Of a stretch of 64,000 bases of DNA, positions 4,403 through 50,076 are shown one piece after another (within the stretch, counting starts at the first letter, position 1; each line of letters begins with the position of its first letter). The stretch spans positions 1,794,590-1,858,589 of the forward strand of contig JASGKJ010000003.1 of assembly GCA_047600665.1 (NCBI GenBank), in the 5' to 3' direction. A program made the position numbers and the translations under genes. The notes beneath the pieces were generated by a model. The model did no database searches, was not told the DNA's origin, and saw only the letters and a list, made by a program, of their open reading frames with translations. Source of the stretch: Ferruginibacter sp. (GTDB taxonomy: Bacteria; Bacteroidota; Bacteroidia; Chitinophagales; Chitinophagaceae).

Positions 4403-4419
4403 AATGCAAGTTTTTCTTT

Positions 4420-7400
4420 TTAAAGTGAGAAATTAAGACCGAATACCAGCTGCTTTGTCAGCGGGAATTCACCGGAACCACCCCTTTCAGGATCATAATT
4501 CTCTACTTTGCTGAATGTGAAATAATTTTTTGCTGTTACATAGAAAATAGCTGATTCAAACGGCAGCTTTTTAATGCTTGCCCTGTTCAGCGTGTACTGC
4601 AGCCTGATGTCTTTTATTTTTACAAATGAACCTGTCTGGTACCGGAGTGTGCTTAAGTACAGGTCATTACCATTTGTACGTGGCCGTGGATAAGCATTGG
4701 TTGGGTTCTCCGGTGTCCAGTAATCAACATTGGAAGTATTGAATATACCGCCGGTGTAATATGACCCTGCATAATCGCTGGAGATCATCTGGCCGATCCT
4801 CGCAAAAACCAGTACACTAAGCATAACATTCTTATAGCTTACCTGGTTGGTGATACCCGCAGTCCAGTCCGGTGTTGCTTTACCCAATACAATACGGTCA
4901 TCCGTTGCTGTTATTTTTCCATCGCCATTCAGGTCCTTCACTTTTATCTCACCGGGATTTGAATTATATCCCGTAGCCTGGTCTTTCTCGCCGGTCTGCC
5001 AAATACCCAGCTTTTGGTAATCATAGAATACCTGTAAAGGTTTACCAACAAACCATGCTTTTGAAATATCATCACCACCAACGCTCAACTGTACGATCTC
5101 TTCACGGAAAGTGGAGAAATTCATATCTGTTGTCCATTTGAAATTCTTTGAAGAAAAATTGACTGTGCTTAAATTGATGTCGATACCTCTTGTTTTTGTT
5201 TTACCAACATTATCAATGATAGAACTAAAACCGGTTGTTGTTGGCAGTATCCTTTCCATCAGCAGGTCACTTGTTTTGGTGGAATATACATCCACAGAAC
5301 CAGTGAGCCTGTTATTGAAGAAACCAAAATCAACGCCAAGGTTAAGTGATGTTGTTTTTTCCCAACTCAGTTCTTTATTGGCAACATTTTTTGGCCAGTA
5401 ACCAATAGCCGGTGTTTCATCAAAAGCGTATGGTATACGGCCAAGACCACCTTGTGTTTGATAAGGCTGTATGGCACTGTTACCTGATAAGCCGTAGCTT
5501 GCCCTCAATTTCAATTCAGAAAGAAAGTTCACTTTGCTCATGAAATCTTCATCATGAATTCTCCATGCAACGGCTGCTGATGGAAAACTAGCCCATTTAT
5601 TTCCTTCGGCCAGTACAGATGATCCGTCTGCACGGATTGAGCCTGTGAAGAGGTATTTTCCTTTATAATCATAGTTGATACGTGCAAAGCCGGATGCCAG
5701 CTGGCTTTCAACAAGGCTGCTGCTGATCCTGAGGTCAGTTGCATTGGCGCCCAGGTTATAAAACAATGCTGTTGCAAAGGGTTGGTTTTTTCCTTCAGCA
5801 GAAAAGGCCACCGTTCTGCCTTTTATTGCACTGGTTCCAACAAGTACATTCAGGTTATGATCATTAAAACTTTGTTTGTAGTTCAGTGTATTTTCCCATG
5901 TCCAGTTACGTGTTTTGATATCAGTGATAGAAGACTTGCTCATACCATTGTTCAATGATGCAAGCGTGTACAATGTGCCTTCATAAATACCCTGCTGGCT
6001 GTTGAAGATATCAATACCCATATTGGTTTTAAAAGTCAGGTTCTTTAAAATGTCCCATTGTGCAAAACCCACCATGAATATCCTGCTTGTCTTTGTATTA
6101 TTGGTATAGTTCATCGGGTCTTCATCCACCAATGGGTTCCTGTCCAGTGATCCTGGCCATGGATAAATTTTGATGGTGCCGTCATCATTATATGGTTTGC
6201 TGAAAGGCAATAATTTTCCAAGATTCCAGAAACTTGTATTACGCCTGTTCTGATCTGAGGAATTAAAATTAAGGATGGTACCAACTTTCAAAGATGGGGC
6301 GATCCTGTAATCGGCATTCAGGTGCTGCACAAAACGTTTCAATACATCATTTTTCAAAAAGCCCTGCTCCCTGAAAAACTCTGATGATAAACGCAGTGAT
6401 ATTTTATCATTGCCGCCGGATACTGCCACATGGTGACTGTTCACAAAACCATCATGCACCATTAATCCTGTCCAGTCAGTAGTTGTACCTTCTTTTATCA
6501 ACGAATAATTTGCTTTAAAAATAGAGCTGTCATCCGCCGGACTGCTCCACTGACCTGCAGCCCTGTACGCTTCACGTGTGATGGCTACATACTGATCCAA
6601 GTTAGATGGCTGTGCATATTTGCCAAGTGTATTAATACCAACATAATTACTTGCTTCTATTTTTGTTTTTCCTTTACCGCTTTTAGTAGTGATAAGGATA
6701 ACACCATTCGCACCTCTTGAACCGTAGATAGCTGTAGAAGATGCGTCTTTTAATATTTCAATCGAGGCTACATCATTTGGATTTACATCAATATAAGAAC
6801 CATATTGTATTCCATCCACCAGTACAAGCGGCTGGTTGGATGCATTGAGTGAACGGTTACCACGTACCGTAAAACTCATACCAGCACCTGTTTCACCTGA
6901 ACTGCGTACCAGGTCAAGCCCTGATACTTTGCCCTGCATGGTTTCAAGCACATTGGTCACTGGTGTGGAAGTGATCTGTTCCTGGCGCAATGAAACAACA
7001 GAACCGGTAAGATCTTTTTCTTCACACTGCCATACCCGATGATCACTACGTTATCCAGGCTTTGATTCAGTATCTTTTAATGTAATGTCAATGGATTTAC
7101 GGCTGCCGACAGTGATCTCCTGCTGTACATACCCAACATAACTGAATACTAAAATGGAGCTTGCTCCTTTTACATTGATCGAGTAGGTGCCCTTATCATT
7201 TGTAGTGGCACCACCGGTTTCATTCTTTACCGTTATGCTCACATTCGCCATTGGCTGACCCTGCTCATTTGTTACTTTACCAATGATGCTTTGCTCCGTT
7301 TCTTCTGGTCCATCTTTTTTAATAGCGATCAGGTGATCATTGATCATCTCGAAAGTAAGCCCGGCATTTTTTAGCAGCAGCTGCATCACTTCTGCAATGG

Positions 7401-29756: not shown

Positions 29757-29797
29757 AACAAAAAAGCACTTTTCTTAAGAAAAAGTGCTTTTTTGTT
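29757..29797. terminator. Bidirectional intrinsic terminator between the T9SS gene and the tRNA
   Basis: AACAAAAAAGCACTTTT-CTTAAGA-AAAAGTGCTTTTTTGTT is a near-perfect palindrome with a U-tract on both strands. Confidence 0.8.
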
Positions 29798-29871
29798 GGT
29801 AGCCCCGACAAGAATCGAACTTGTATCTAAAGTTTAGGAAACTTCTATTCTATCCATTGAACTACAGGGCC
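29797..29871 (-). tRNA. tRNA-Arg(CCT), CCA encoded
   Basis: The minus strand reads GGCCCTG...GAAGT-TTCCTAA-ACTTT...GTTCGAT...CGGGGCT-A-CCA, which folds as a cloverleaf with anticodon CCT. Confidence 0.95.
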
Positions 29872-40679: not shown

Positions 40680-41696
40680 ATGAGCCCAATACAGAAAGCA
40701 TTGCAGCAGCGGATACTGATTATAGATGGCGCCATGGGCACCATGATACAGCGGCATAAACCAACCGAAGCAACTTACAGGGGCGAAAGATTTAAAGACT
40801 GGCCAATAGATGTAAAAAACAACAGTGATATACTAAATCTTACCCAGCCTCAGATAATTGAAGGCATTCACCGGGAGTACCTGGAAGCAGGTGCTGATAT
40901 CATTGAGACAAACACTTTTGCTGCTACCACCATTGCGCAGGAAGATTTTAAGCTGGAAGCATTTGTACATGAGCTGAACGTGGAAGGTGCCCGTATTGCA
41001 CGCCGTGCAGCCGATGCTTATACCGCAAAGGATCCATCTAAGCCCCGCTTTGTGGCAGGTGCCATTGGGCCATTAAACCGAACATTGAGTTTATCCCCGG
41101 ATGTAAACAATCCCGGTTACCGTGCTGTAACATTTGATGAAGTGGCCAAAGCATACAAAGAACAAATAAAAGGGCTGGTAGAAGGTGGTGTAGATGTTTT
41201 ATTAATTGAAACCATCTTTGATACCCTTAATGCAAAAGCTGCCATCTATGCAGCAAAAAATTTCTTCAGGGAAAATAATATACCGGAACTGCCCATTATG
41301 ATCAGTGGTACCATCACTGATGCATCAGGCAGAACACTGAGTGGTCAAACGCTGGAAGCATTTTATACATCCGTTGCACATGCAAACCCACTAAGTGTAG
41401 GGCTGAATTGTGCATTGGGTGCAAACGAAATGCGGCCGCATATTGAGGAGCTGTCGCAAATAGCAGCCTGCCATGTATCTGCTTATCCAAATGCCGGCTT
41501 GCCCAATGCTATGGGTGAATATGATGAACAACCGCATGAAACAGCACATATACTTGAAGGATGGGCAAAAGAAGGATTCTTGAACATTGTTGGTGGCTGC
41601 TGCGGCACCACGCCGGATCATATAAAACATATTGCAGAAGAAGTAAGCAAATTCAAACCGAGAGAACTGCCCCTGATGGAAAAGGAATTAATTTAA
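40680..41696 (+). CDS. metH: Methionine synthase, N-terminal homocysteine-binding module
   Basis: [46 protein letters not shown] (Zn ligands). Confidence 0.96.
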
Positions 41697-41733
41697 CCAC
41701 AAAGGGCACTAAGAAAGCATACAAAGTTCACAA
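41696..41733 (+). repeat. Left arm of a 38-bp imperfect inverted repeat flanking the GxxExxY gene
   Basis: ACCACAAAGGGCACTAAGAAAGCATACAAAGTTCACAA matches the reverse complement of 42111-42148 at 31/38 positions with no gaps. Confidence 0.85.
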
Positions 41734-42116
41734 TGTTTACTGAAAATGACATAGCGAAGATTGTGTTTGAAGCAGGACTGAAAGTTCACAAAGCATTAGG
41801 CCCCGGGTTATTAGAAAGTGCTTATGAAGAGTGCTTATGTTTCGAGTTATCAAAAACAGGCTTATTTATAGAAAGGCAAAAATGTCTTCCGCTGATTTAT
41901 GAAGATATTAAAATGGAGGCTGGATACCGTGCTGATTTTATGATTGAAAACAAATTTATTGTTGAGATAAAAGCGATTGAAACATTAGCGGATATACATC
42001 TTGCTCAAATATTAACTTATTTGAAATTATCGAATTGCAAACTGGGTTTATTAATAAATTTTAATGTATTACTTTTTAAAGATGGGGTAAAAAGAGTTAT
42101 CAATGGTTCTTTGTGA
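41733..42116 (+). CDS. GxxExxY protein (PD-(D/E)XK-like fold)
   Basis: LGPGLLESAYEECL, RADFMIENKFIVEIKA, AQILTYLK...GLLINFN; 127 aa. Confidence 0.95.
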   Translation: MFTENDIAKIVFEAGLKVHKALGPGLLESAYEECLCFELSKTGLFIERQKCLPLIYEDIKMEAGYRADFMIENKFIVEIKAIETLADIHLAQILTYLKLSNCKLGLLINFNVLLFKDGVKRVINGSL

Positions 42117-42148
42117 ACCTTGTGTACTTACTTTGTGTCCTTAGTGGT
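42111..42148 (-). repeat. Right arm of the inverted repeat flanking the GxxExxY gene
   Basis: TTGTGAACCTTGTGTACTTACTTTGTGTCCTTAGTGGT; overlaps the gene's TGA stop codon. Confidence 0.85.
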
Positions 42149-42155
42149 AAAAAAA

Positions 42156-44816
42156 ATGAGCACTATAAAACCATACTTACGTCTCAGCGGTCTTGAACCT
42201 TTGGTCATCAGGCCCGAAACCAATTTTGTAAATGTTGGTGAGCGTACCAATGTAACCGGCAGTAAAAAATTTGCACGGCTTATTAAGGAGAACAAATACG
42301 AAGAAGCATTGAGTGTTGCACGGCAACAGGTGGAAAGCGGCGCACAGGTGATCGATGTGAACATGGACGATGCTTTGCTGGATGGCGTGAAAGCAATGAC
42401 CACTTTCCTCAACCTGCTGCAAAGCGAACCGGACATTGCCAAGATACCGGTGATGATCGACTCATCCAAGTTCGAGATCATTGAAGCCGGGTTGAAATGT
42501 GTGCAGGGCAAATGCATTGTAAACTCCATCTCCATGAAAGAGGGAGAAGCAAAATTTATTGAACAGGCATTTATCTGCCGCAGCTATGGCGCTGCTGTTA
42601 TTGTAATGGCCTTTGATGAAAAAGGACAGGCGGATACAAAAGACCGCAAAGTGGAAATTTGTCACCGGGCTTATAAGATCCTTACAGAACAGGTAGGCTT
42701 TCCACCGCAGGATATTATTTTTGACCCTAACATATTTGCCGTAGCTACCGGTTTGGAAGAACACAATAACTACGGCGTTGATTTTATAGAAGCTACAAGA
42801 GAGATAAAACAACTGATGCCGCTTACTAAAATAAGTGGTGGTGTAAGTAATTTATCTTTTTCTTTCCGCGGCAATGATCATGTAAGGGAAGCTATGCACA
42901 GCGTGTTTCTTTACTACACCATCAAAGCTGGTATGGATATGGGCATTGTAAATGCCGGACAGCTGGTTGTATATGATGAGATAGAACCTGCGTTGAGAAA
43001 TTTATGTGAAGATGTGATCCTTAACCGTAACAATGATAATAACGAGGCTACGGAAAAACTAATTGCATTTGCAGAAACAGTAAAAGCAAAAGGCAAAACA
43101 GAAGTAAAAGATGAAGCCTGGCGAAACCTGCCGGTTGAAAAACGTTTGGCGCACTCACTCGTAAATGGCATTACAGATTATATCGATATAGATACAGAAG
43201 AAGTAAGGCAAAAATCTGCAAGACCCTTAGATGTGATCGAAGGCCCGCTGATGGATGGCATGAACATCGTAGGTGATCTCTTCGGCAGCGGTAAAATGTT
43301 TTTACCCCAGGTGGTAAAGAGTGCCCGTGTGATGAAGAAAAGTGTGGCGTACTTACAACCCTTTATTGAAGCTGAAAAACAGGAAGCATCCAATGCACCC
43401 ACCGTTTTACTGGCAACAGTAAAAGGTGATGTACATGATATCGGTAAAAATATTGTGGGCGTGGTGCTGGGTTGTAATGGTTACACCGTAGTTGACCTGG
43501 GTGTGATGGTGCCCGCTGATAAAATTTTAGAAGAAGCAAAAAAATGTAATGCTGCTATTATTGGTTTATCAGGATTGATCACACCATCGCTGGATGAAAT
43601 GGTGCATGTAGCACACGAAATGAAACGCCGGGAAATGAACCTGCCGTTGCTGATTGGTGGTGCCACTACTTCCCGTATGCATACAGCGGTAAAGATCGCA
43701 CCACAATATGATAAAGGCGTGGTGCATGTACTGGATGCAAGCCGCAGCGTAACCGTGGTAAGCAGTTTATTAAGCAATGAACAGAAAGCAGATTTTCTTG
43801 CCGGTATAAAAACGGAATACACAAAGCTGGCAGATGATTTCAATAATAAAAAAGCCGTTAAGCAATTTTTACCATTTGCAGCAGCGCAACAAAATACAGT
43901 AAAAATTAACTGGGAAAATTTCAAACCTGTTCAGCCAACTTTTACAGGCGTTAAAGTTTTTGATAATTATTCTTTACAGGAAATAGCAAACTATATTGAC
44001 TGGCAGCCGTTCTTTATTGCATGGGAACTGCATGGAAAATTCCCACAAATATTAAGCGATGAAAAGGTGGGTGCAGAAGCCACCAAACTGTACAATGACG
44101 CCAACATCCTGCTTAAAAAGATCATTGATGAAAAATGGCTGACCGCCAAAGGCACGGTTGGTTTTTGGGAAGCGAAGAAAACAGCACCGGATTCTGTACA
44201 GGTAAAAGATGGTGACTCAACCATCAAATTAGAATTTTTAAGACAGCAGGTAAAGAAAGCTGCTGACCAGCCCAACATATCGCTTGCTGATTTTATCAGC
44301 CCTGGCGGCAACGACTATATGGGCGCTTTCTCTGTAACGATACAGGGCATCGATCAGCATATTAAAAACTTTGAAGCGGCCCATGATGATTACAACAAGA
44401 TCATCCTGCAGGCGCTGGCCGACCGTTTTGCAGAAGCATTTGCAGAATGCCTGCATGAAAAGACAAGAAAAGAGTACTGGGGCTACGACAAAGCAGAAGC
44501 ACTCTCCAATGAACAATTGATAAAAGAAGAGTATGCAGGCATCCGTCCTGCACCAGGCTATCCCGCCTGCCCCGATCATACAGAAAAATACAAGCTGTTC
44601 AATTTACTGGGCGGCGAAGCAAATACGGGTATCCATCTTACTGAAAGCTTAGCGATGTATCCGGCATCTTCTGTTTGCGGCTGGTATTTTGCAAATCCTG
44701 AAAGTAAATATTTTGGTGTGGGTAAAATTGATAAGGACCAGCTGGAAGACTACGCTAAACGAAAGGAGATGGATATTGATGAAGTAACGAGGTGGCTAAG
44801 GCCGATACTGGAATAA
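42156..44816 (+). CDS. metH: Methionine synthase, pterin-binding, B12-binding and reactivation module
   Basis: [26 protein letters not shown] (B12 His ligand), [22 protein letters not shown]. Start moved to MSTIKP. Confidence 0.97.
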
Positions 44817-44904
44817 CAAACCGGTTTCCCGCAATTGTTTTGCCGCAAGTTTATTTGTACAGAAAAGCACTGATTGTCAAGGTAAACTTGTACAAGGAGT
44901 TGCG

Positions 44905-44912
44905 TATATTTG
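44905..44912 (+). promoter_or_regulatory. -7 element (TATATTTG) heading the cassette array (Pc-like promoter)
   Basis: TAnnTTTG match 3 nt upstream of the first GTT half-site. Confidence 0.7.
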
Positions 44913-44915
44913 AGA

Positions 44916-44927
44916 GTTGGTGGCAAT
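44916..44927 (+). repeat. Lone right half-site GTTGGTGGCAAT (attI-like entry point of cassette 1)
   Basis: Identical to 45789-45800, but no left arm or central repeat lies upstream. Confidence 0.7.
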
Positions 44928-44977
44928 ATTAAAAGAGCTTACGTTTCCAAAACTCAGTTGACAAAAAACGTTACAGT

Positions 44978-45586
44978 GTGACGCAGATCTTCAGCAAAAG
45001 CAAACTTAATCGCATGTTTCGCTTAGGTTATCGACTTGCCTTCGAGACAACAAAACCCAAAAAGAAAGATTGGGAAGACATTTATTCGCTTTGGCTGTGT
45101 GCGGCTAAAGGTGGACATAAAAGAGCGCAATTTTATTTGGGCACTTGCTATGACAATGGGTATGGGACAGAGAAAAATTTGCAATTAGCATTTGAGTGGT
45201 ACTTAAAAGCTGCAAAGACTGGACATAGAGACGCTCAATACAATGTTGGTTTTTTCTTTTCTACTGATGAACTTGGTATTAAGAACGACAAGAAAAAAGT
45301 ATTTTGGTATTCTAAAGCCGCAGAAGCTGGACTTATTGATGCACAAAGAGATTTAGGTTATTCATATTTCTATGGAGAAGGAATTAAGAAAGATGAAACG
45401 AAAGCTGTTTATTGGTATAAAAAGGCTGCATCAAAAAACGACGAAAAGGCACTTTACAATTTAGGACTTTGCTACAAACACGGTGACGGGGTTAATCAAT
45501 CAAATCGCTGGACGAAATATTACTTTGAACAAGCAAAAAAGTTTGGACATAAAGAAGCGGCAAAGGAATTACGAAAATTAGGCTGA
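44978..45586 (+). CDS. Cassette 1: Sel1-like repeat protein
   Basis: Repeated AQFYLGTCYDNGYG, AQRDLGYSYFYGEG and ALYNLGLCYKHGDG. GTG start; a later ATG at 45014 is possible. Confidence 0.9.
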   Translation: MTQIFSKSKLNRMFRLGYRLAFETTKPKKKDWEDIYSLWLCAAKGGHKRAQFYLGTCYDNGYGTEKNLQLAFEWYLKAAKTGHRDAQYNVGFFFSTDELGIKNDKKKVFWYSKAAEAGLIDAQRDLGYSYFYGEGIKKDETKAVYWYKKAASKNDEKALYNLGLCYKHGDGVNQSNRWTKYYFEQAKKFGHKEAAKELRKLG

Positions 45587-45593
45587 CGACAAT

Positions 45594-45800
45594 ACTGCCA
45601 CCAACAAACGGTTTTGCGCAAGTGTGGCTGGACAAACTAATCTTCAGCCTTACTTCGTTACTCAGCTTCAGTTTCGGGCGGACACAGCAACTTTGGGCAT
45701 TAGTTCTTACCTTCAGCTAAACAAAACTATCAGCGGTTGTTCCGGGCGGACGCAATTCTAATTCCACACCTGCAGCAAAGCCGCCAACGTTGGTGGCAAT
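45594..45800 (+). repeat. attC-like repeat 1
   Basis: TGCCACCAAC (45596) / GTTGGTGGCA (45789) pair perfectly. Inner arms GGTTTTGCGCAAGTGTGG / CCACACCTGCAGCAAAGCC pair with one bulged base. Spacers are 4 and 6 nt. Confidence 0.85.
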
Positions 45801-45818
45801 TATAAACGACCCTTCATT

Positions 45819-46493
45819 TTGAAAAATATTGTTAGACAAAACCTGTTAGTCGGATTTCTAATTTCACTACTTTCTTGTGGTCAGACAAATAAGTTTGATG
45901 ACAAGGATACCGTCAATCACAAAATAACTTCAACAAATCAATTCCCGTTTCAAAAGGCAAAAGATAAATACAACGAACTCCTAGATATCAAAGGCAGCTA
46001 CAATTATATTTCGGTTGACACAGCATCTATTAAATTACTGACTGAAAATGAAATTACAGGTTTAGACAATTTTGATTGTTACAGATTTACAATATTTAAT
46101 GGAGCCCATTACGAATATAATAGTGGACAAATCATTTGCATTGGGTTGGTTTCCAAATCAGACACCAACGACCTTAGGATTTTATTTCCAAAAGACTACA
46201 CAAAAAGTTCTTTAAATTTCTATGACCCATTCTTAAACAGTAAAATTTCTGACAGAAAGAATTATTGTACAAAACTTTCAAACCTGATAAACTATTTCAC
46301 ATCGTATCAAATAAAAAATATTGAATACAGTTATTTGGACGCCAACAATTTGCTGACAGTTATTTCTAAACATACAGTTCAGACTTACGACATAGTTTCT
46401 AAAAAGAATACATCATTTTTACAATCAGACACAATCCAATTTATATTTAGCGGAGATACATTGAAATCGTTTTTACAAGTCAGTGGAAAATAA
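45819..46493 (+). CDS. Cassette 2: hypothetical lipoprotein
   Basis: TTG start, lipobox LLSC; no family motif recognised. Confidence 0.75.
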   Translation: MKNIVRQNLLVGFLISLLSCGQTNKFDDKDTVNHKITSTNQFPFQKAKDKYNELLDIKGSYNYISVDTASIKLLTENEITGLDNFDCYRFTIFNGAHYEYNSGQIICIGLVSKSDTNDLRILFPKDYTKSSLNFYDPFLNSKISDRKNYCTKLSNLINYFTSYQIKNIEYSYLDANNLLTVISKHTVQTYDIVSKKNTSFLQSDTIQFIFSGDTLKSFLQVSGK

Positions 46494-46699
46494 CTGCAAC
46501 CAACAAAAGGTTTGCCGCAAGGCTGGCGGACGTAATAACAATCGGCAGTTGTACTATTATCAGCTAATATCGGGCTTGACCGAATTCTATTTGGCTTTTA
46601 GTTGTTAACTTCAACATCGGTTTTTCAATCGGCTTCAGTTGCCGGGCAGACAGTTATAAAATATCAGCCCTGCGGCAAGCCTCGAACGTTGTGTGTAAC
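46493..46699 (+). repeat. attC-like repeat 2
   Basis: ACTGCAACCAAC-aaaa-GGTTTGCCGCAAGGCTG ... CAGCCCTGCGGCAAGCC-tcgaac-GTTGTGTGTAAC. Confidence 0.85.
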
Positions 46700-46702
46700 T
46701 TT

Positions 46703-47239
46703 ATGAAGACCTTCAAATCAAACATATGCATTTACATTAGTTTAACCTTTCTTCTGTTGACATGGCTTTTTGTTGGAATATTTAGAGACAGTGAGTTTTA
46801 CGAACCCTCAATATTTACAAAGTATAGACCGACATTTAAGGTATTTTTTTACACTCCAATTGGCGAATCAGACTTAGAAATGGAAGAACTTTCCACTAGT
46901 AAGCAAAGTGAGGAAATAGCATTTCAAGAATTCGTTATTAAACAACATCAACAATATAACAGTGATTCAAAACTTTGGTATTTACCCTTTATTTTAATCC
47001 AGTTGACTCTGACATTTTTATGTTTTGGCATTTTCAAAAACTGGACTAACCTGACTTACAAAAATTGGCAACTGGCAGTACATTTCTTAATCAATATAAT
47101 AATCACCACTGCTGGACTTGCATTTTTATTATCATTTGACAAAACCATAATTACAATGCTCATAATAGTCATTATTCTAGCAGCCAATTGCTGGGCAATA
47201 ATTTTGCTTACAAAGCGAAGGTTAAGAATAACAACTTAG
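46703..47239 (+). CDS. Cassette 3: hypothetical integral membrane protein (~4 TM)
   Basis: Four hydrophobic segments. Start set to ATG 46703, just after the GTT site. Confidence 0.75.
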   Translation: MKTFKSNICIYISLTFLLLTWLFVGIFRDSEFYEPSIFTKYRPTFKVFFYTPIGESDLEMEELSTSKQSEEIAFQEFVIKQHQQYNSDSKLWYLPFILIQLTLTFLCFGIFKNWTNLTYKNWQLAVHFLINIIITTAGLAFLLSFDKTIITMLIIVIILAANCWAIILLTKRRLRITT

Positions 47240-47267
47240 ATTTTGTAATTACGGACATTCAACAAAA

Positions 47268-47470
47268 GCTACACATAACATTAGTTTTTATGCAAGTTGA
47301 GCATGATCAGCAACATCAGCCAATTGCAAAGCCTAGCAGTGCCTCAGGAGGAACAAACCACTTTGAGCTTTAGTTCTTAATTTCAATATCAGTTTTTCAA
47401 CCGGCAGCCGCTGTGGGCAGATGGATCCCAACCGGGATAAGGCCATACCCTTTATGCGCAAGCCATTTGA
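47268..47470 (+). repeat. attC-like repeat 3 (degenerate, right GTT lost)
   Basis: Starts GCTACACATAAC. The core AGTTCTTAATTTCAATATCAGTTTTTCAACCGGC matches repeat 2 at 29/34. It ends GCGCAAGCC with no GTT. Confidence 0.7.
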
Positions 47471-47532
47471 TTTCCTTCTAATAACGACAAAAATATTTGA
47501 CTGAATTTGTCTGCACATACCCGAAGTATTTT

Positions 47533-47925
47533 ATGAAAGTAACCTTAAGATTTAAAATTTTATCTAGCCTTTGGAGTGCTGTTATTTCCATGTTACTTTT
47601 AGCGTGTAATTCGCCGCATGATAAAATGATTGATACAATGAGCAAACAATCCTATTGTTTAGAAAAGGTTACTGATTCTGACAGTTCTATTTTTCTTCCT
47701 GGTGCCCAATTACATCTAAAGCCTGACAATTCTTTTTTTGTGTCAAGCGAGGACAATCAATTGTCAAAAATAACTGGTGAGTGGGACTTGTGTTGTTCGG
47801 GCTCAGGCTACGGTAATTATGTATTTAAGATAAAAGGATTACCTGAATGGACACAAGCGAATACAGATTTCTTTGTTTTAAGATACGGAAGGAAAATCAG
47901 ACTGTTTTTCAAAATGTGCAACTAG
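47533..47925 (+). CDS. Cassette 4: hypothetical lipoprotein
   Basis: Lipobox LLAC. Start set to MKVTLRF. Confidence 0.7.
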   Translation: MKVTLRFKILSSLWSAVISMLLLACNSPHDKMIDTMSKQSYCLEKVTDSDSSIFLPGAQLHLKPDNSFFVSSEDNQLSKITGEWDLCCSGSGYGNYVFKIKGLPEWTQANTDFFVLRYGRKIRLFFKMCN

Positions 47926-47934
47926 ACTTTGACG

Positions 47935-48146
47935 ACTGCGTACAACAGTTGGTTTGGCAATAGACTGGCAGGACGTTGCCCTGCCCAAGCGGCAGTAATT
48001 CTATTTGGCTTTTGTGCGTGGCTCAACAAGCTACGCAGAACTTTTATTTGTTACCTTCAATATCAGCAATTTATTGAGCTTCGGTTCCTGGGCTGGATAA
48101 GCAATGAATATCCTGCCTTCGGCAATACTCGGTCGTTGCAGACAAT
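47935..48146 (+). repeat. attC-like repeat 4
   Basis: ACTGCGTACAAC-agtt-GGTTTGGCAAT...GGCAGGA ... TCCTGCC-TTCGGCAATAC-tcggtc-GTTGCAGACAAT. Shares the 17-mer AATTCTATTTGGCTTTT with repeat 2. Confidence 0.8.
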
Positions 48147-48174
48147 TTTTCTAAGCATTATTAATTAACTATCT

Positions 48175-48651
48175 ATGAAAAAAATATCACTTAGTTCATT
48201 AGTCATAACACTTATTAGCTTTTCAGTCATACTTTTTATTACGACTGGTTGCAAAACATCAAAGGCTAATGTTTCCGGCAGCATGTCCAAAAATCAACTG
48301 TTGATTGAAAAAACATGGCAGGTAGATAAACTTTATCATGTTATTTCCGGGCAATATTCTTCTTATACAAGGGGAGGGCCGAATACCACCGGCATTAATT
48401 ATGATCTGCTTCGGTTCACATTTAATGCTGACGGAACGGGTAAGCATATTGGTCCTGATAATAAAACTTATTACTTTAGCTGGAAACTTAATCCAGGTGA
48501 CAGCCGGAGTTTACTCTTAACGAATAATGGACGAACTGATAGCTGGGATATGTTAGAGATTGCAGGTGACTATTTACATGCTGCAGCAAACTTAAACATC
48601 AACGGAGACACCAACAACTTAGAAGTATTCAGGTTAATACAGGTTAAATAA
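48175..48651 (+). CDS. Cassette 5: lipoprotein with a lipocalin-like beta-barrel (tentative)
   Basis: Lipobox TTGC; LLIEKTWQV...FTFNADGTG...FSWKL pattern. Confidence 0.7.
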   Translation: MKKISLSSLVITLISFSVILFITTGCKTSKANVSGSMSKNQLLIEKTWQVDKLYHVISGQYSSYTRGGPNTTGINYDLLRFTFNADGTGKHIGPDNKTYYFSWKLNPGDSRSLLLTNNGRTDSWDMLEIAGDYLHAAANLNINGDTNNLEVFRLIQVK

Positions 48652-48706
48652 CAACAAAACTGCTTGCGATATTGGATGAGTTAGGGTCAAACTATTAAAC
48701 ACGCTG

Positions 48707-49285
48707 ATGAAAAAAGCATTTTTTATATCAATCTTTACGCTGTTTGCCGGCATTTTATTTGGACAGCTAAAGAGTCCGGTAAGAGAATTATTCTTTGGAA
48801 TTAATTTGAATGCTTCCCGTAAAGCAATTTACAATCAGTTAGCTTCGGATAAACGCTTCTTTCAAAAAGGCTATATTGAAACTGATAGCCTATCGCCTTT
48901 TTATCATGGAGAATTTCATGGTTTAAGCTTTGATAAAGGATTGGTTGAGGCAAAACCAGATTCTATTGAAATTAGCCTGAATTGGTTAAAAATTAGCAGG
49001 CTGGTGAAAAATGGAGAGCACGAAACCATCAATAACTTAATATTTTTTTCTAAATACTATTACAGCTCGAATGATATCGCAAAAAAGGAATATCAACAGA
49101 TAATTGATTTAGTATCCAGGAAAAATTCTGATACATCTCATCAAGAAAGATATATTCATTTTCCTGTTCCAATTGAAAGTACAAGGTTTAATTTCCGCAA
49201 ACCAGCCTATCAGCTTGAGATTATGTTATTCAATTTCGATGCTACGCATTCAGAATTACATTTGTCATTTATCCGTAAGGAATAA
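48707..49285 (+). CDS. Cassette 6: hypothetical secreted protein
   Basis: Sec signal peptide MKKAFFISIFTLFAGILFG; no family motif recognised. Confidence 0.7.
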   Translation: MKKAFFISIFTLFAGILFGQLKSPVRELFFGINLNASRKAIYNQLASDKRFFQKGYIETDSLSPFYHGEFHGLSFDKGLVEAKPDSIEISLNWLKISRLVKNGEHETINNLIFFSKYYYSSNDIAKKEYQQIIDLVSRKNSDTSHQERYIHFPVPIESTRFNFRKPAYQLEIMLFNFDATHSELHLSFIRKE

Positions 49286-49398
49286 AATATCATGGGCATA
49301 TGCCTCCTGGCAGGAGTTGTGTAAAATAAACCGGCTTTAATAATCAGGCAGGGAACAAGTTAGCGGCTGTACCACACTTTTCGATTCCAAATGCAGTC

Positions 49399-50076
49399 TC
49401 ACACCATCATCGCTGCTGCCACAAACTGGCTGCAAACACCCACTATTAACCCGGTGTAAATTTCTTTTGGTGTATGATCACTTACGATCATCCTTGAAGT
49501 ACATACGGCACCCGTAATAAAAAAAGCCAGCGCCAGCGGCCAGGTCATCAGCATGCTGTTCAGCAACATGATCACCAGGAAAATACCGATCAGCCCGCCC
49601 ATACCAATGGCATGCATGCTGATCTTGAAATAGATGTTTGCCAGCAGCGCCGCAGAGGAAGCCAGGAAAACACCAAAGGTAAATGCTGTCAAGATGGATG
49701 GTATCTCGGGCTGGTTGCGGAACACGAGATATGTCCAGAAGAAAAAGATACCACAGGCAATGTATGGTATGATGCGTTCTTTCTGTGTGCGGAGAAAAAT
49801 TGATTTATTGAAACCAAGTGCTTTCAGCAATAACACCGTCAGCAATGGAAAAAACACCATGGTGTAACTCACCCTGATAACGATCCACCATTTTTGTGCT
49901 GCACTGTATCCTGTAAAATAGGACGGGTGTATAAAAGTTAAGAACCAGGTAACATATACCGGGATGAAAAGGGGGTGAAAAATATAAGAGAAAAGATGTG
50001 CTAGTATCCTAATTAGCAAAGGTGAACCATCAGCCCTTATTTCCCCGCTTCCATCTATTGACAATTGAGTATTCAC
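49399..50076 (-). CDS. PAP2-like integral membrane protein
   Basis: About 6-7 TM helices; KISMHAIGMGG and SRMIVSDHTPKEIYTG resemble PAP2 motifs 2 and 3. Confidence 0.65.
   Translation of the reverse strand: MNTQLSIDGSGEIRADGSPLLIRILAHLFSYIFHPLFIPVYVTWFLTFIHPSYFTGYSAAQKWWIVIRVSYTMVFFPLLTVLLLKALGFNKSIFLRTQKERIIPYIACGIFFFWTYLVFRNQPEIPSILTAFTFGVFLASSAALLANIYFKISMHAIGMGGLIGIFLVIMLLNSMLMTWPLALAFFITGAVCTSRMIVSDHTPKEIYTGLIVGVCSQFVAAAMMV

Follow-up and report, generated by a model that had tools for sequence, protein, structure and literature searches.

A probable recombinase-less array of gene cassettes built on integron logic in a Ferruginibacter genome

Integrons are the model for modular gene capture, and have been thought to depend on a domain specific to the integron integrase IntI and to be nearly absent from Bacteroidota. 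An IntegronFinder 2.0 survey recorded only In0 elements and one Salinibacter integron in Bacteroidetes, and a 2024 preprint listed Bacteroidota among the clades without integrons. The window analyzed here is a 64-kb stretch of DNA from Ferruginibacter sp. (contig JASGKJ010000003.1), in which an interval between metH and a convergent membrane-protein gene carries six small genes, four of them followed by long repeats resembling integron attC sites. It is very likely that this interval holds a gene-cassette array without a recombinase, belonging to a Bacteroidota system that operates on integron logic; judging from the sequence, we read it as partly decayed. The case is built by sequence analysis from the architecture and boundaries of the repeats, the covariation of their arms, the position of the crossover, the sharing of cassettes between genomes and the linkage of related arrays to a recombinase gene and attI-like region. 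No description of such arrays was found in the searchable literature, the coverage of which is incomplete, so that an earlier description may exist elsewhere; within that scope, the system seems not to have been described previously.

The four repeats are homologous, about 205 bp long and placed one after each of open reading frames (ORFs) 1-4, all on the + strand. As repeats they span 45596-45800, 46495-46699, 47271-47461, and 47937-48146. An iterated hidden Markov model (HMM) drawn from several hundred homologues recovers exactly these four in the 64 kb (E=1e-22 to 7e-48), with no further copy elsewhere in the window:

45591-45803, + strand: site R1, attC-like, structurally intact (HMM E=2e-45; 26-30 outer-stem pairs)
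46490-46702, + strand: site R2, attC-like, structurally intact (HMM E=7e-48)
47265-47464, + strand: site R3, attC-like, degenerate (HMM E=1e-22; outer-stem pairs only 9-13)
47932-48149, + strand: site R4, attC-like (HMM E=2e-26)

A search pattern combining arms and center likewise gave four matches in the window against 0.00 expected from 100 shuffles; a naive ungapped stem scanner was abandoned as overly strict and, with 2.4 hits per shuffled 64 kb, noisy as well. In R1 and R2 the order of elements is ...AAC, a 4-nt spacer, GGTTT..., a long center, ...AAGCC, a 6-nt spacer and GTT. The R'' arm of R1 is AATACTGCCACCAAC, with its AAC ending at 45605 and the G of GTT at 45789, and the outer stem is stable when either strand is folded as single-stranded DNA; in R2 the AAC ends at 46504 and the G lies at 46688, with 26 outer-stem pairs in the native arrangement and 31 when reconstituted. 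Centroid folds of either single strand are dominated by an outer stem of about 10 bp (TGCCACCAAC/GTTGGTGGCA) and an inner stem of about 18 bp. In R3 the inner stem is gone and CTT replaces GTT at 47450, while R4 retains intact ends (AAC ending at 47946; G at 48135) and combines L'' and L' arms of differing subtypes, which therefore pair poorly. A sequence-only reading of the window had proposed homologous repeats behind four genes and, for the intact copies, the layout given above: the repeats were recovered in full, and the layout is correct for R1 and R2.

A pattern scan of species-representative genomes returned at least 120 loci, 96 of these true, and copies of the site numbered 281-412 in the 96 true loci, 281 being the count with the first HMM, and about 400 in all fetched loci with the iterated one. 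Hosts are overwhelmingly Chitinophagaceae (including Ferruginibacter, Ilyomonas, Lacibacter, Segetibacter, Hydrotalea, Parafilimonas, and Pinibacter), Saprospiraceae and other Bacteroidota, and co-oriented arrays reach 10 copies per 8 kb and 12 per 10 kb. The ends of the site are strongly conserved, with AAC in 237 and GTT in 224 of 241 full-length copies, and an AAC-to-G distance of 180-188 nt in most copies gives sites of about 195-205 bp. For 292 copies, a co-oriented ORF (median 204 aa) comes first and stops a median of 10 nt short of the site. In an alignment of 100 copies, compensatory double changes were seen at 12 of 14 inner-stem pairs, one of which occurs as GC in 42, CG in 31, and AU in 17. 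The stems contain one conserved T.G and one conserved A.C position, no consistently bulged base and spacers of unequal length (4/6 nt). The center has no consensus structure; conserved within it are three direct GGGC(N)GGAC repeats, TTAACTTCAAC and TTTTCAATC. Two side observations concern the extent of the family. One locus (L015, 6690-6860 and 7810-7975) carries a second subtype with the same R and L arms and a different, shorter center (CGCCCAAC-AAAA-GGCTTTGCGCAA...TTGCGCAAAGCC-TGGGAC-GTT), to which the HMM is blind, so that the site counts are lower bounds. True copies also lie on contigs binned outside Bacteroidota, in metagenome-assembled genomes of Acidobacteria (L018) and Ignavibacteria (L048, with a frameshifted recombinase of 40-50% identity), reflecting either binning error or spread beyond the phylum.

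The position of the crossover was deduced from 144 consecutive pairs of sites. The R'' arm can pair at 9.17 of 13 positions with the bases that follow the upstream GTT, compared with 5.12/13 for its own adjacent R' and 4.84/13 for random partners; the upstream partner was favored in 125 of the 144 pairs and the adjacent one in 5 (Wilcoxon p=1e-22). Position 11 of this pairing is an almost invariant A.C mismatch. R'' thus pairs with the start of its own cassette and not with the adjacent downstream sequence, which places the crossover at G|TT and divides the array of the window into the following units:

44917-45789, + strand: cassette 1, Sel1-repeat gene and R1
45790-46688, + strand: cassette 2, putative lipoprotein gene and R2
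46689-47450, + strand: cassette 3, multi-pass membrane protein gene and degenerate R3
47451-48135, + strand: cassette 4, putative lipoprotein gene and R4

Cassette 1 starts with TTGGTGGCAATATT, which can pair with the R'' of R1 at 11 of 13 positions, whereas the adjacent R' reaches 9/13; the corresponding values are 10/13 and 6/13 for cassette 2, and 10/13 and 0/13 (adjacent sequence) for cassette 3. The first three R'' arms therefore match best the start of their own gene unit, as would follow if each gene and its site had once formed a circle opened at G|TT, and recircularizing the window cassettes in silico lengthens the outer stem.

Identical cassettes were found in different genomes, with homology stopping 2 nt past the G. 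Cassette 2 of the window has only eight homologues among 5.8 billion proteins; the three that were looked up led to four loci, 4/4 in co-oriented arrays of small ORFs. Its DNA is 79% identical in three of the fetched loci (L213, L214, and L215), where homology runs from 45788 or 45778 (G|TT) into the site and the neighbors differ, cassettes 1 and 3 having no counterpart in these loci. Supporting evidence comes from a Ferruginibacter array (L009) followed in Logan unitigs, which are assembler products and were used for depth, presence, and loose ends. One of its cassettes forms a unitig of its own (4404-5200) between G positions 4406 and 5198, has a depth of 69 against 13-17 for its neighbors (about 4-5x), and occurs in three metagenomes of other studies (wastewater, aquaculture) without those neighbors and with alternative flanks at both boundaries. 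Joints between repeats in the same unitigs were set aside as assembly-graph artifacts.

Tyrosine recombinases account for two of the 145 ORFs flanking arrays. In these two loci (L015 and L052) the gene lies directly upstream of the first cassette and is co-oriented with it, and the two proteins are 75% identical. A metagenome scan with both yielded at least 472 relatives, of which the best 80 (65-84% identity) were kept. Downstream of these 80 genes, 86 sites were found in 172 kb, all co-oriented, compared with none in 305 kb upstream; where 1.5 kb or more of downstream sequence was available (29 loci), 24 loci had one site or more, and many contigs end 0.1-1.5 kb past the recombinase gene, as expected at a repeat array. 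At 102-290 nt past the recombinase gene there is a stretch complementary to the R'' of the first site, again with the mismatch at position 11, and about 100 nt before the start of the first cassette are conserved. This region, designated attI, was matched by an HMM just after about 72 of the 80 genes. It contains a ACAATACAAAA-type repeat (four copies in L015; a single motif match in most other loci), a TTGATTTTCAAT motif, a T-run, and a TAnnTTT(A/G) element just before |GTT. A TGATTTTCAAT-like motif, seen in the attI regions of L121-L200 and in columns ~145-153 of the site alignment, is common to attI and cassette sites at ~45-60 nt 5' of the crossover; this motif and the GGGC(N)GGAC repeats may be accessory binding sites.

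The recombinase is not an integron integrase. Its top NCBIfam model is that of archaeal XerA (XerA_Arch, 201-208 bits; cut-off 220), while the integron-integrase model TIGR02249 gives 180 bits against a cut-off of 265, and in two pieces. Residues 41-214 and 240-312 align with 8-181 and 247-319 of VchIntIA/IntI4, so that IntI4 residues 182-246 (65) correspond to 25 in the recombinase and about 40 residues of the insert are missing. The protein is colinear with XerA, and the structures 5hxy and 4a8e match over the full length without the gap seen against IntI; XerA and IntI4 rank equal in Foldseek. The catalytic R, K, HxxR, H, and Y are invariant in the family, which comprises at least 7,275 clusters at E<=1e-40 and which source databases label XerD or tyrosine recombinase, never integron integrase. 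Full-length members (about 393-420 aa) possess an extra N-terminal domain of about 70 aa followed by a disordered linker. The domain is modeled as beta-beta-alpha-beta-beta-alpha-beta with a predicted local distance difference test score (pLDDT) of about 86-91, and has no Pfam match; an eIF1/SUI1-like interpretation (E about 0.003-0.02; pLDDT 58 when folded alone) was weak and not relied on. The IntI-specific segment holds the helix that reads extrahelical bases. In place of this missing helix, the recombinase may use accessory arm-type contacts, as its N-terminal domain and the motifs repeated in attI and in the sites suggest.

The window has no recombinase gene, and its array opens directly after metH with a fifth boundary site that the sequence-only reading had not included (GTT at 44916-44918). 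Two features lie here:

44807-44849, + strand: attC-5'-arm-like stretch overlapping the metH stop, AAC-AAAC-CGGTTTCCCGCAA; TTTTGCCGCAAG
44850-44918, + strand: attI-like leader, TTTGTACAG..CTGATTGTCAAGG..CTTGTACAAGGAGTTGCGTATATTTGAGA|GTT, first crossover G at 44916

The leader is about 70-75 nt long, ends ...GTTGCGTATATTTGAGA|GTT and contains TATATTTG, a putative promoter element of the Bacteroidota -7 type. The full attI HMM does not reach it; its 17-nt core, GCGTATATTTRAGNGTT, is the attI crossover core that L015, L121, and L122 have beside their recombinase genes. In full length, the leader also heads recombinase-less arrays at L037, L067, L085, and L104, preceded there by unrelated chromosomal genes, for a histidine kinase (L037), RelA_SpoT (L067), DUF1801 (L085), and adenine deaminase (L104). 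Leader-headed platforms without a local recombinase are thus recurrent and not an accident of this genome. A TAnnTTTG/A element lies at 44904-44911, 4-6 nt before G|TT, as it does in attI; we take it to resemble the Bacteroidota -7 promoter element, and it may correspond to the Pc promoter of integrons. The arm-like stretch upstream is 63% identical to the R1 5' arm, with an HMM match that is not significant (E=0.14). One explanation tried for this stretch, an attC half-site bordering the recombinase gene, was rejected since no such motif occurs upstream of 65 recombinase genes.

The main metH ORF occupies 42120-44816 (stop at 44816), and the array is bounded on the other side by the convergent membrane-protein gene (49399-50076), followed by rpoN. 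The genes between them are:

44978-45586, + strand: ORF1, Sel1-repeat protein
45819-46493, + strand: ORF2, putative lipoprotein, no Pfam match
46691-47239, + strand: ORF3, multi-pass membrane protein, no Pfam match
47497-47925, + strand: ORF4, putative lipoprotein, no Pfam match
48175-48651, + strand: ORF5, small, secreted or lipoprotein-like
48707-49285, + strand: ORF6, small, secreted or lipoprotein-like
48136-49398, + strand: distal segment with ORF5 and ORF6, stopping at a synteny break

The six co-oriented ORFs encode 142-224 aa each and show no kinship with one another (lowest BLASTP E-value 0.08). In Pfam, ORF1 matches Sel1 (1.6e-31) and the other five have no match; their lipoprotein, signal-peptide, and multi-pass membrane assignments were made by eye. 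GC content is 30-37% in the array ORFs (33-37% for the distal segment) versus 43-44% in the flanking genes. No site was found after ORF5 or ORF6 by HMM with all filters off, and attC remnants that seemed possible there by eye were accordingly discarded. In all relatives examined (Ferruginibacter spp. with 70-80% identity in the membrane protein, the nearest available), YkuD and urease genes instead of an array come after rpoN and the membrane-protein gene, which makes the distal end of the array (49286-49398) a synteny break; the comparison of the interval from metH to the membrane-protein gene demonstrates non-synteny and not cassette turnover at the same locus. Elsewhere in the neighborhood, metH is split into a homocysteine S-methyltransferase ORF (40680-41696, 338 aa) and the remainder (898 aa), with a PD-(D/E)XK gene (PF13366; 127 aa, 41733-42116) between the halves, and a tRNA-Arg(CCT) gene at 29797-29871 is the sole Rfam or ARAGORN match in the window.

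In the mechanism that we infer from these data, a cassette would consist of TT, a short leader, one promoterless gene and a site of about 200 nt ending in G. Circularization would join its two ends and so restore a long, imperfect hairpin made up of an R''/R' stem (about 15 bp, with the fixed A.C mismatch), the 4/6-nt spacer, an L''/L' stem of about 18 bp and a center of about 140 nt with conserved motifs. Strand exchange at G|TT is most likely the work of the dedicated tyrosine recombinase, acting between two sites or between a site and the attI-like partner, a region with direct repeats shortly after the recombinase gene; cassettes would thereby be inserted, excised, and reshuffled. The covariation of the stems argues that sites are recognized as folded structures, and arms that covary rather than stay conserved argue against ordinary recognition of duplex arms; the folded site is probably recognized in single-stranded DNA, as in integrons. 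Expression of the array genes in the window would depend on read-through from metH or on the promoter-like element in the leader. With two sites intact, two decayed, a truncated distal end, and no recombinase, the window array is probably a trans-dependent or fossil platform.

The analysis bears out most of what the sequence-only reading had seen or anticipated, and none of the refuting conditions named in that reading came true: unrelated, co-oriented, AT-rich genes between metH and a convergent gene, a locus that is not syntenic in relatives, repeats elsewhere placed one per gene just after stop codons, AAC/GTT boundaries kept in a larger alignment, and the same cassette at other loci with a G|TT boundary. 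Its central proposal of an integron-like cassette system gains from the 144-pair complementarity, the shared cassettes, and the linkage to recombinase and attI, and is qualified by a recombinase that is not IntI, by the degeneracy of half the window sites, and by the lack of a recombinase gene in the window. Its suggestion that standard attC models may miss these sites gains indirect support from published surveys. For the phylum as a whole, we lean toward the view that Bacteroidota, above all Chitinophagales, own a widespread capture system parallel to integrons, in which a Xer-like clade lacking the IntI insert and bearing an added, putatively DNA-binding N-terminal domain recombines sites of about 200 nt at G|TT and serves many recombinase-less platforms; such a system could be sister or ancestral to integrons or an independent invention.

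Several points weigh against a cassette platform. R3 and R4 are structurally impaired, ORF5 and ORF6 lack sites, the 64-kb window contains neither a recombinase gene nor a remnant of one, and an intact recombinase stands beside the array in only 2 of the first 96 genome loci. No recombination product, whether circle junction or excision, was observed directly, the read-level data being assembler unitigs that break at repeats anyway. The sequence-conserved center is unlike canonical attC and may serve another function, and the conserved T.G pair of the L stem would suit an RNA helix too. Part of this favors a fossil array, once functional and inactive in this genome, whose six genes are now fixed accessory genes: the missing recombinase, the degenerate R3 and R4, the two genes without sites, and the distal end at a synteny break would all follow. 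On the other hand, R1 and R2 have stayed fully intact, other genomes share the conserved leader, and recombinase-less arrays with the same leader recur elsewhere, suggesting maintained platforms that act in trans. We consider inactivity a real possibility, though not the favored one; it concerns present activity only and is compatible with a cassette system.

Two further readings fit the evidence worse than the cassette platform does. If the array were a canonical, integron-derived cluster of attC sites lacking integron-integrases (CALIN), with long but true attC sites, IntI encoded elsewhere in the genome and the Xer-like recombinase incidental, then its architecture, AAC/GTT ends, and G|TT crossover would fit attC, and a window without a recombinase, in a genome inspected within the 64 kb only, would fit the definition. 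However, none of about 200 fetched loci has an IntI-type gene beside it, the recombinase linked to arrays by 86 downstream and no upstream sites lacks the IntI insert (180 versus 265 bits), IntegronFinder surveys report essentially no integrons in Bacteroidetes, and the sites are about 200 bp with conserved central motifs; we regard this origin as improbable. About as improbable are 3'-untranslated-region RNA elements (terminators, stabilizers, or small RNAs) or selfish repeats, either miniature inverted-repeat transposable elements (MITEs) or repetitive extragenic palindromic (REP) elements, inserted after genes that are not themselves mobile. Repeats always placed just after a co-oriented ORF, a covarying stem whose T.G pair an RNA helix would tolerate, and a conserved center suggestive of a sequence-specific function are all compatible with them, but they leave unexplained why R'' is complementary to the start of its own cassette rather than its own flank, why gene-plus-repeat units in other genomes break at G|TT, and why sites lie exclusively downstream of recombinase and attI. 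Rfam gave no match at gathering score in the window besides the tRNA, and none even at E<=1 in 44700-49500; the repeats have neither terminal inverted repeats with target-site duplications nor T-tract terminators. For MITE/REP elements in particular, every copy is co-oriented with the ORF just before it, and the complementarity of the flanks follows cassette logic, not duplication. A secondary RNA role of the sites is conceivable alongside recombination.

The cargo of related arrays is highly diverse, 148 ORFs falling into 89 Pfam families with no more than two ORFs per family, and ORF clustering around arrays revealed no recurrent neighbor family besides the recombinase and transposases of insertion sequences. 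Among the cargo are Mrr and GmrSD restriction enzymes, an AIPR (abortive-infection-like) protein, HNH nucleases, and beta-lactamase-fold proteins (e.g., L015 4959-5888; L027 317-1993), which by analogy hints at defense-gene cassettes as in Vibrio superintegrons. If the system is as proposed, soil, freshwater, and wastewater Bacteroidota would hold a large hidden pool of mobile cassettes, including restriction, abortive-infection-like, and beta-lactamase-fold cargo, and frequent assembly breaks and hypervariable regions in their genomes would find an explanation. A plain Xer-like core would show how hairpin-site recombination can work, or may have arisen, without the IntI-specific domain. The origin of integrons and the essential features of their recombinases would become a testable question, and the system would also supply new site-specific recombination parts.

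Among described systems, Xer/dif and integrative mobile elements exploiting Xer (IMEX) use one duplex site of about 28 bp with conserved arms per replicon or element, and were rejected given tens of sites of about 200 bp per genome, in arrays and with covarying arms. In sequence and in structure, the linked recombinase matches archaeal XerA and bacterial XerC/D best and shares their catalytic residues, but Xer enzymes resolve chromosome dimers at one short duplex dif site and possess neither arrays of 200-bp hairpin sites nor the N-terminal domain of about 70 aa. VchIntIA/IntI4 (PDB 2a3v) ranks with XerA in fold and sequence searches and has the Phage_int_SAM_4 core-binding domain and the inferred task in common with the recombinase, which lacks the IntI-specific segment of roughly 40 residues. 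CALINs, described in 2016, resemble the window in having several sites, no recombinase nearby, and partial decay. They are defined by the canonical attC covariance model, and the window array is compared with them by architecture; it differs from them in its opening, a conserved attI-like leader shared with other arrays that lack a recombinase.

The closest parallel is with sedentary chromosomal integrons such as the Vibrio cholerae superintegron, with its attC sites of the Vibrio cholerae repeat (VCR) type. Both have long arrays of co-oriented, promoterless single-gene cassettes; sites that are homogeneous within a lineage, ordered R''-L''...L'-R' with AAC/GTT ends and unequal spacers; a crossover at G|TT that leaves each cassette carrying the remainder of its own R'; an attI beside a tyrosine recombinase gene; and very diverse cargo, mostly of unknown function and AT-richer than the host. 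In contrast to integrons, the linked recombinase lacks the IntI-specific insert, bears an extra N-terminal domain and points the same way as the cassettes, the sites measure about 195-205 bp (attC, 55-141 bp) with conserved sequence motifs in the center, the stems show conserved mismatches and no consistently bulged base, and the host phylum is regarded as almost devoid of integrons. The features that define an integron are thus divided: attC architecture, the G|TT crossover, and attI beside the recombinase gene are present (the last in related loci, the window having the leader variant only), while the IntI-specific domain and the size and structure-only center of attC are not. Because the linked recombinase is not an IntI, the system is best described as integron-like rather than as an integron.

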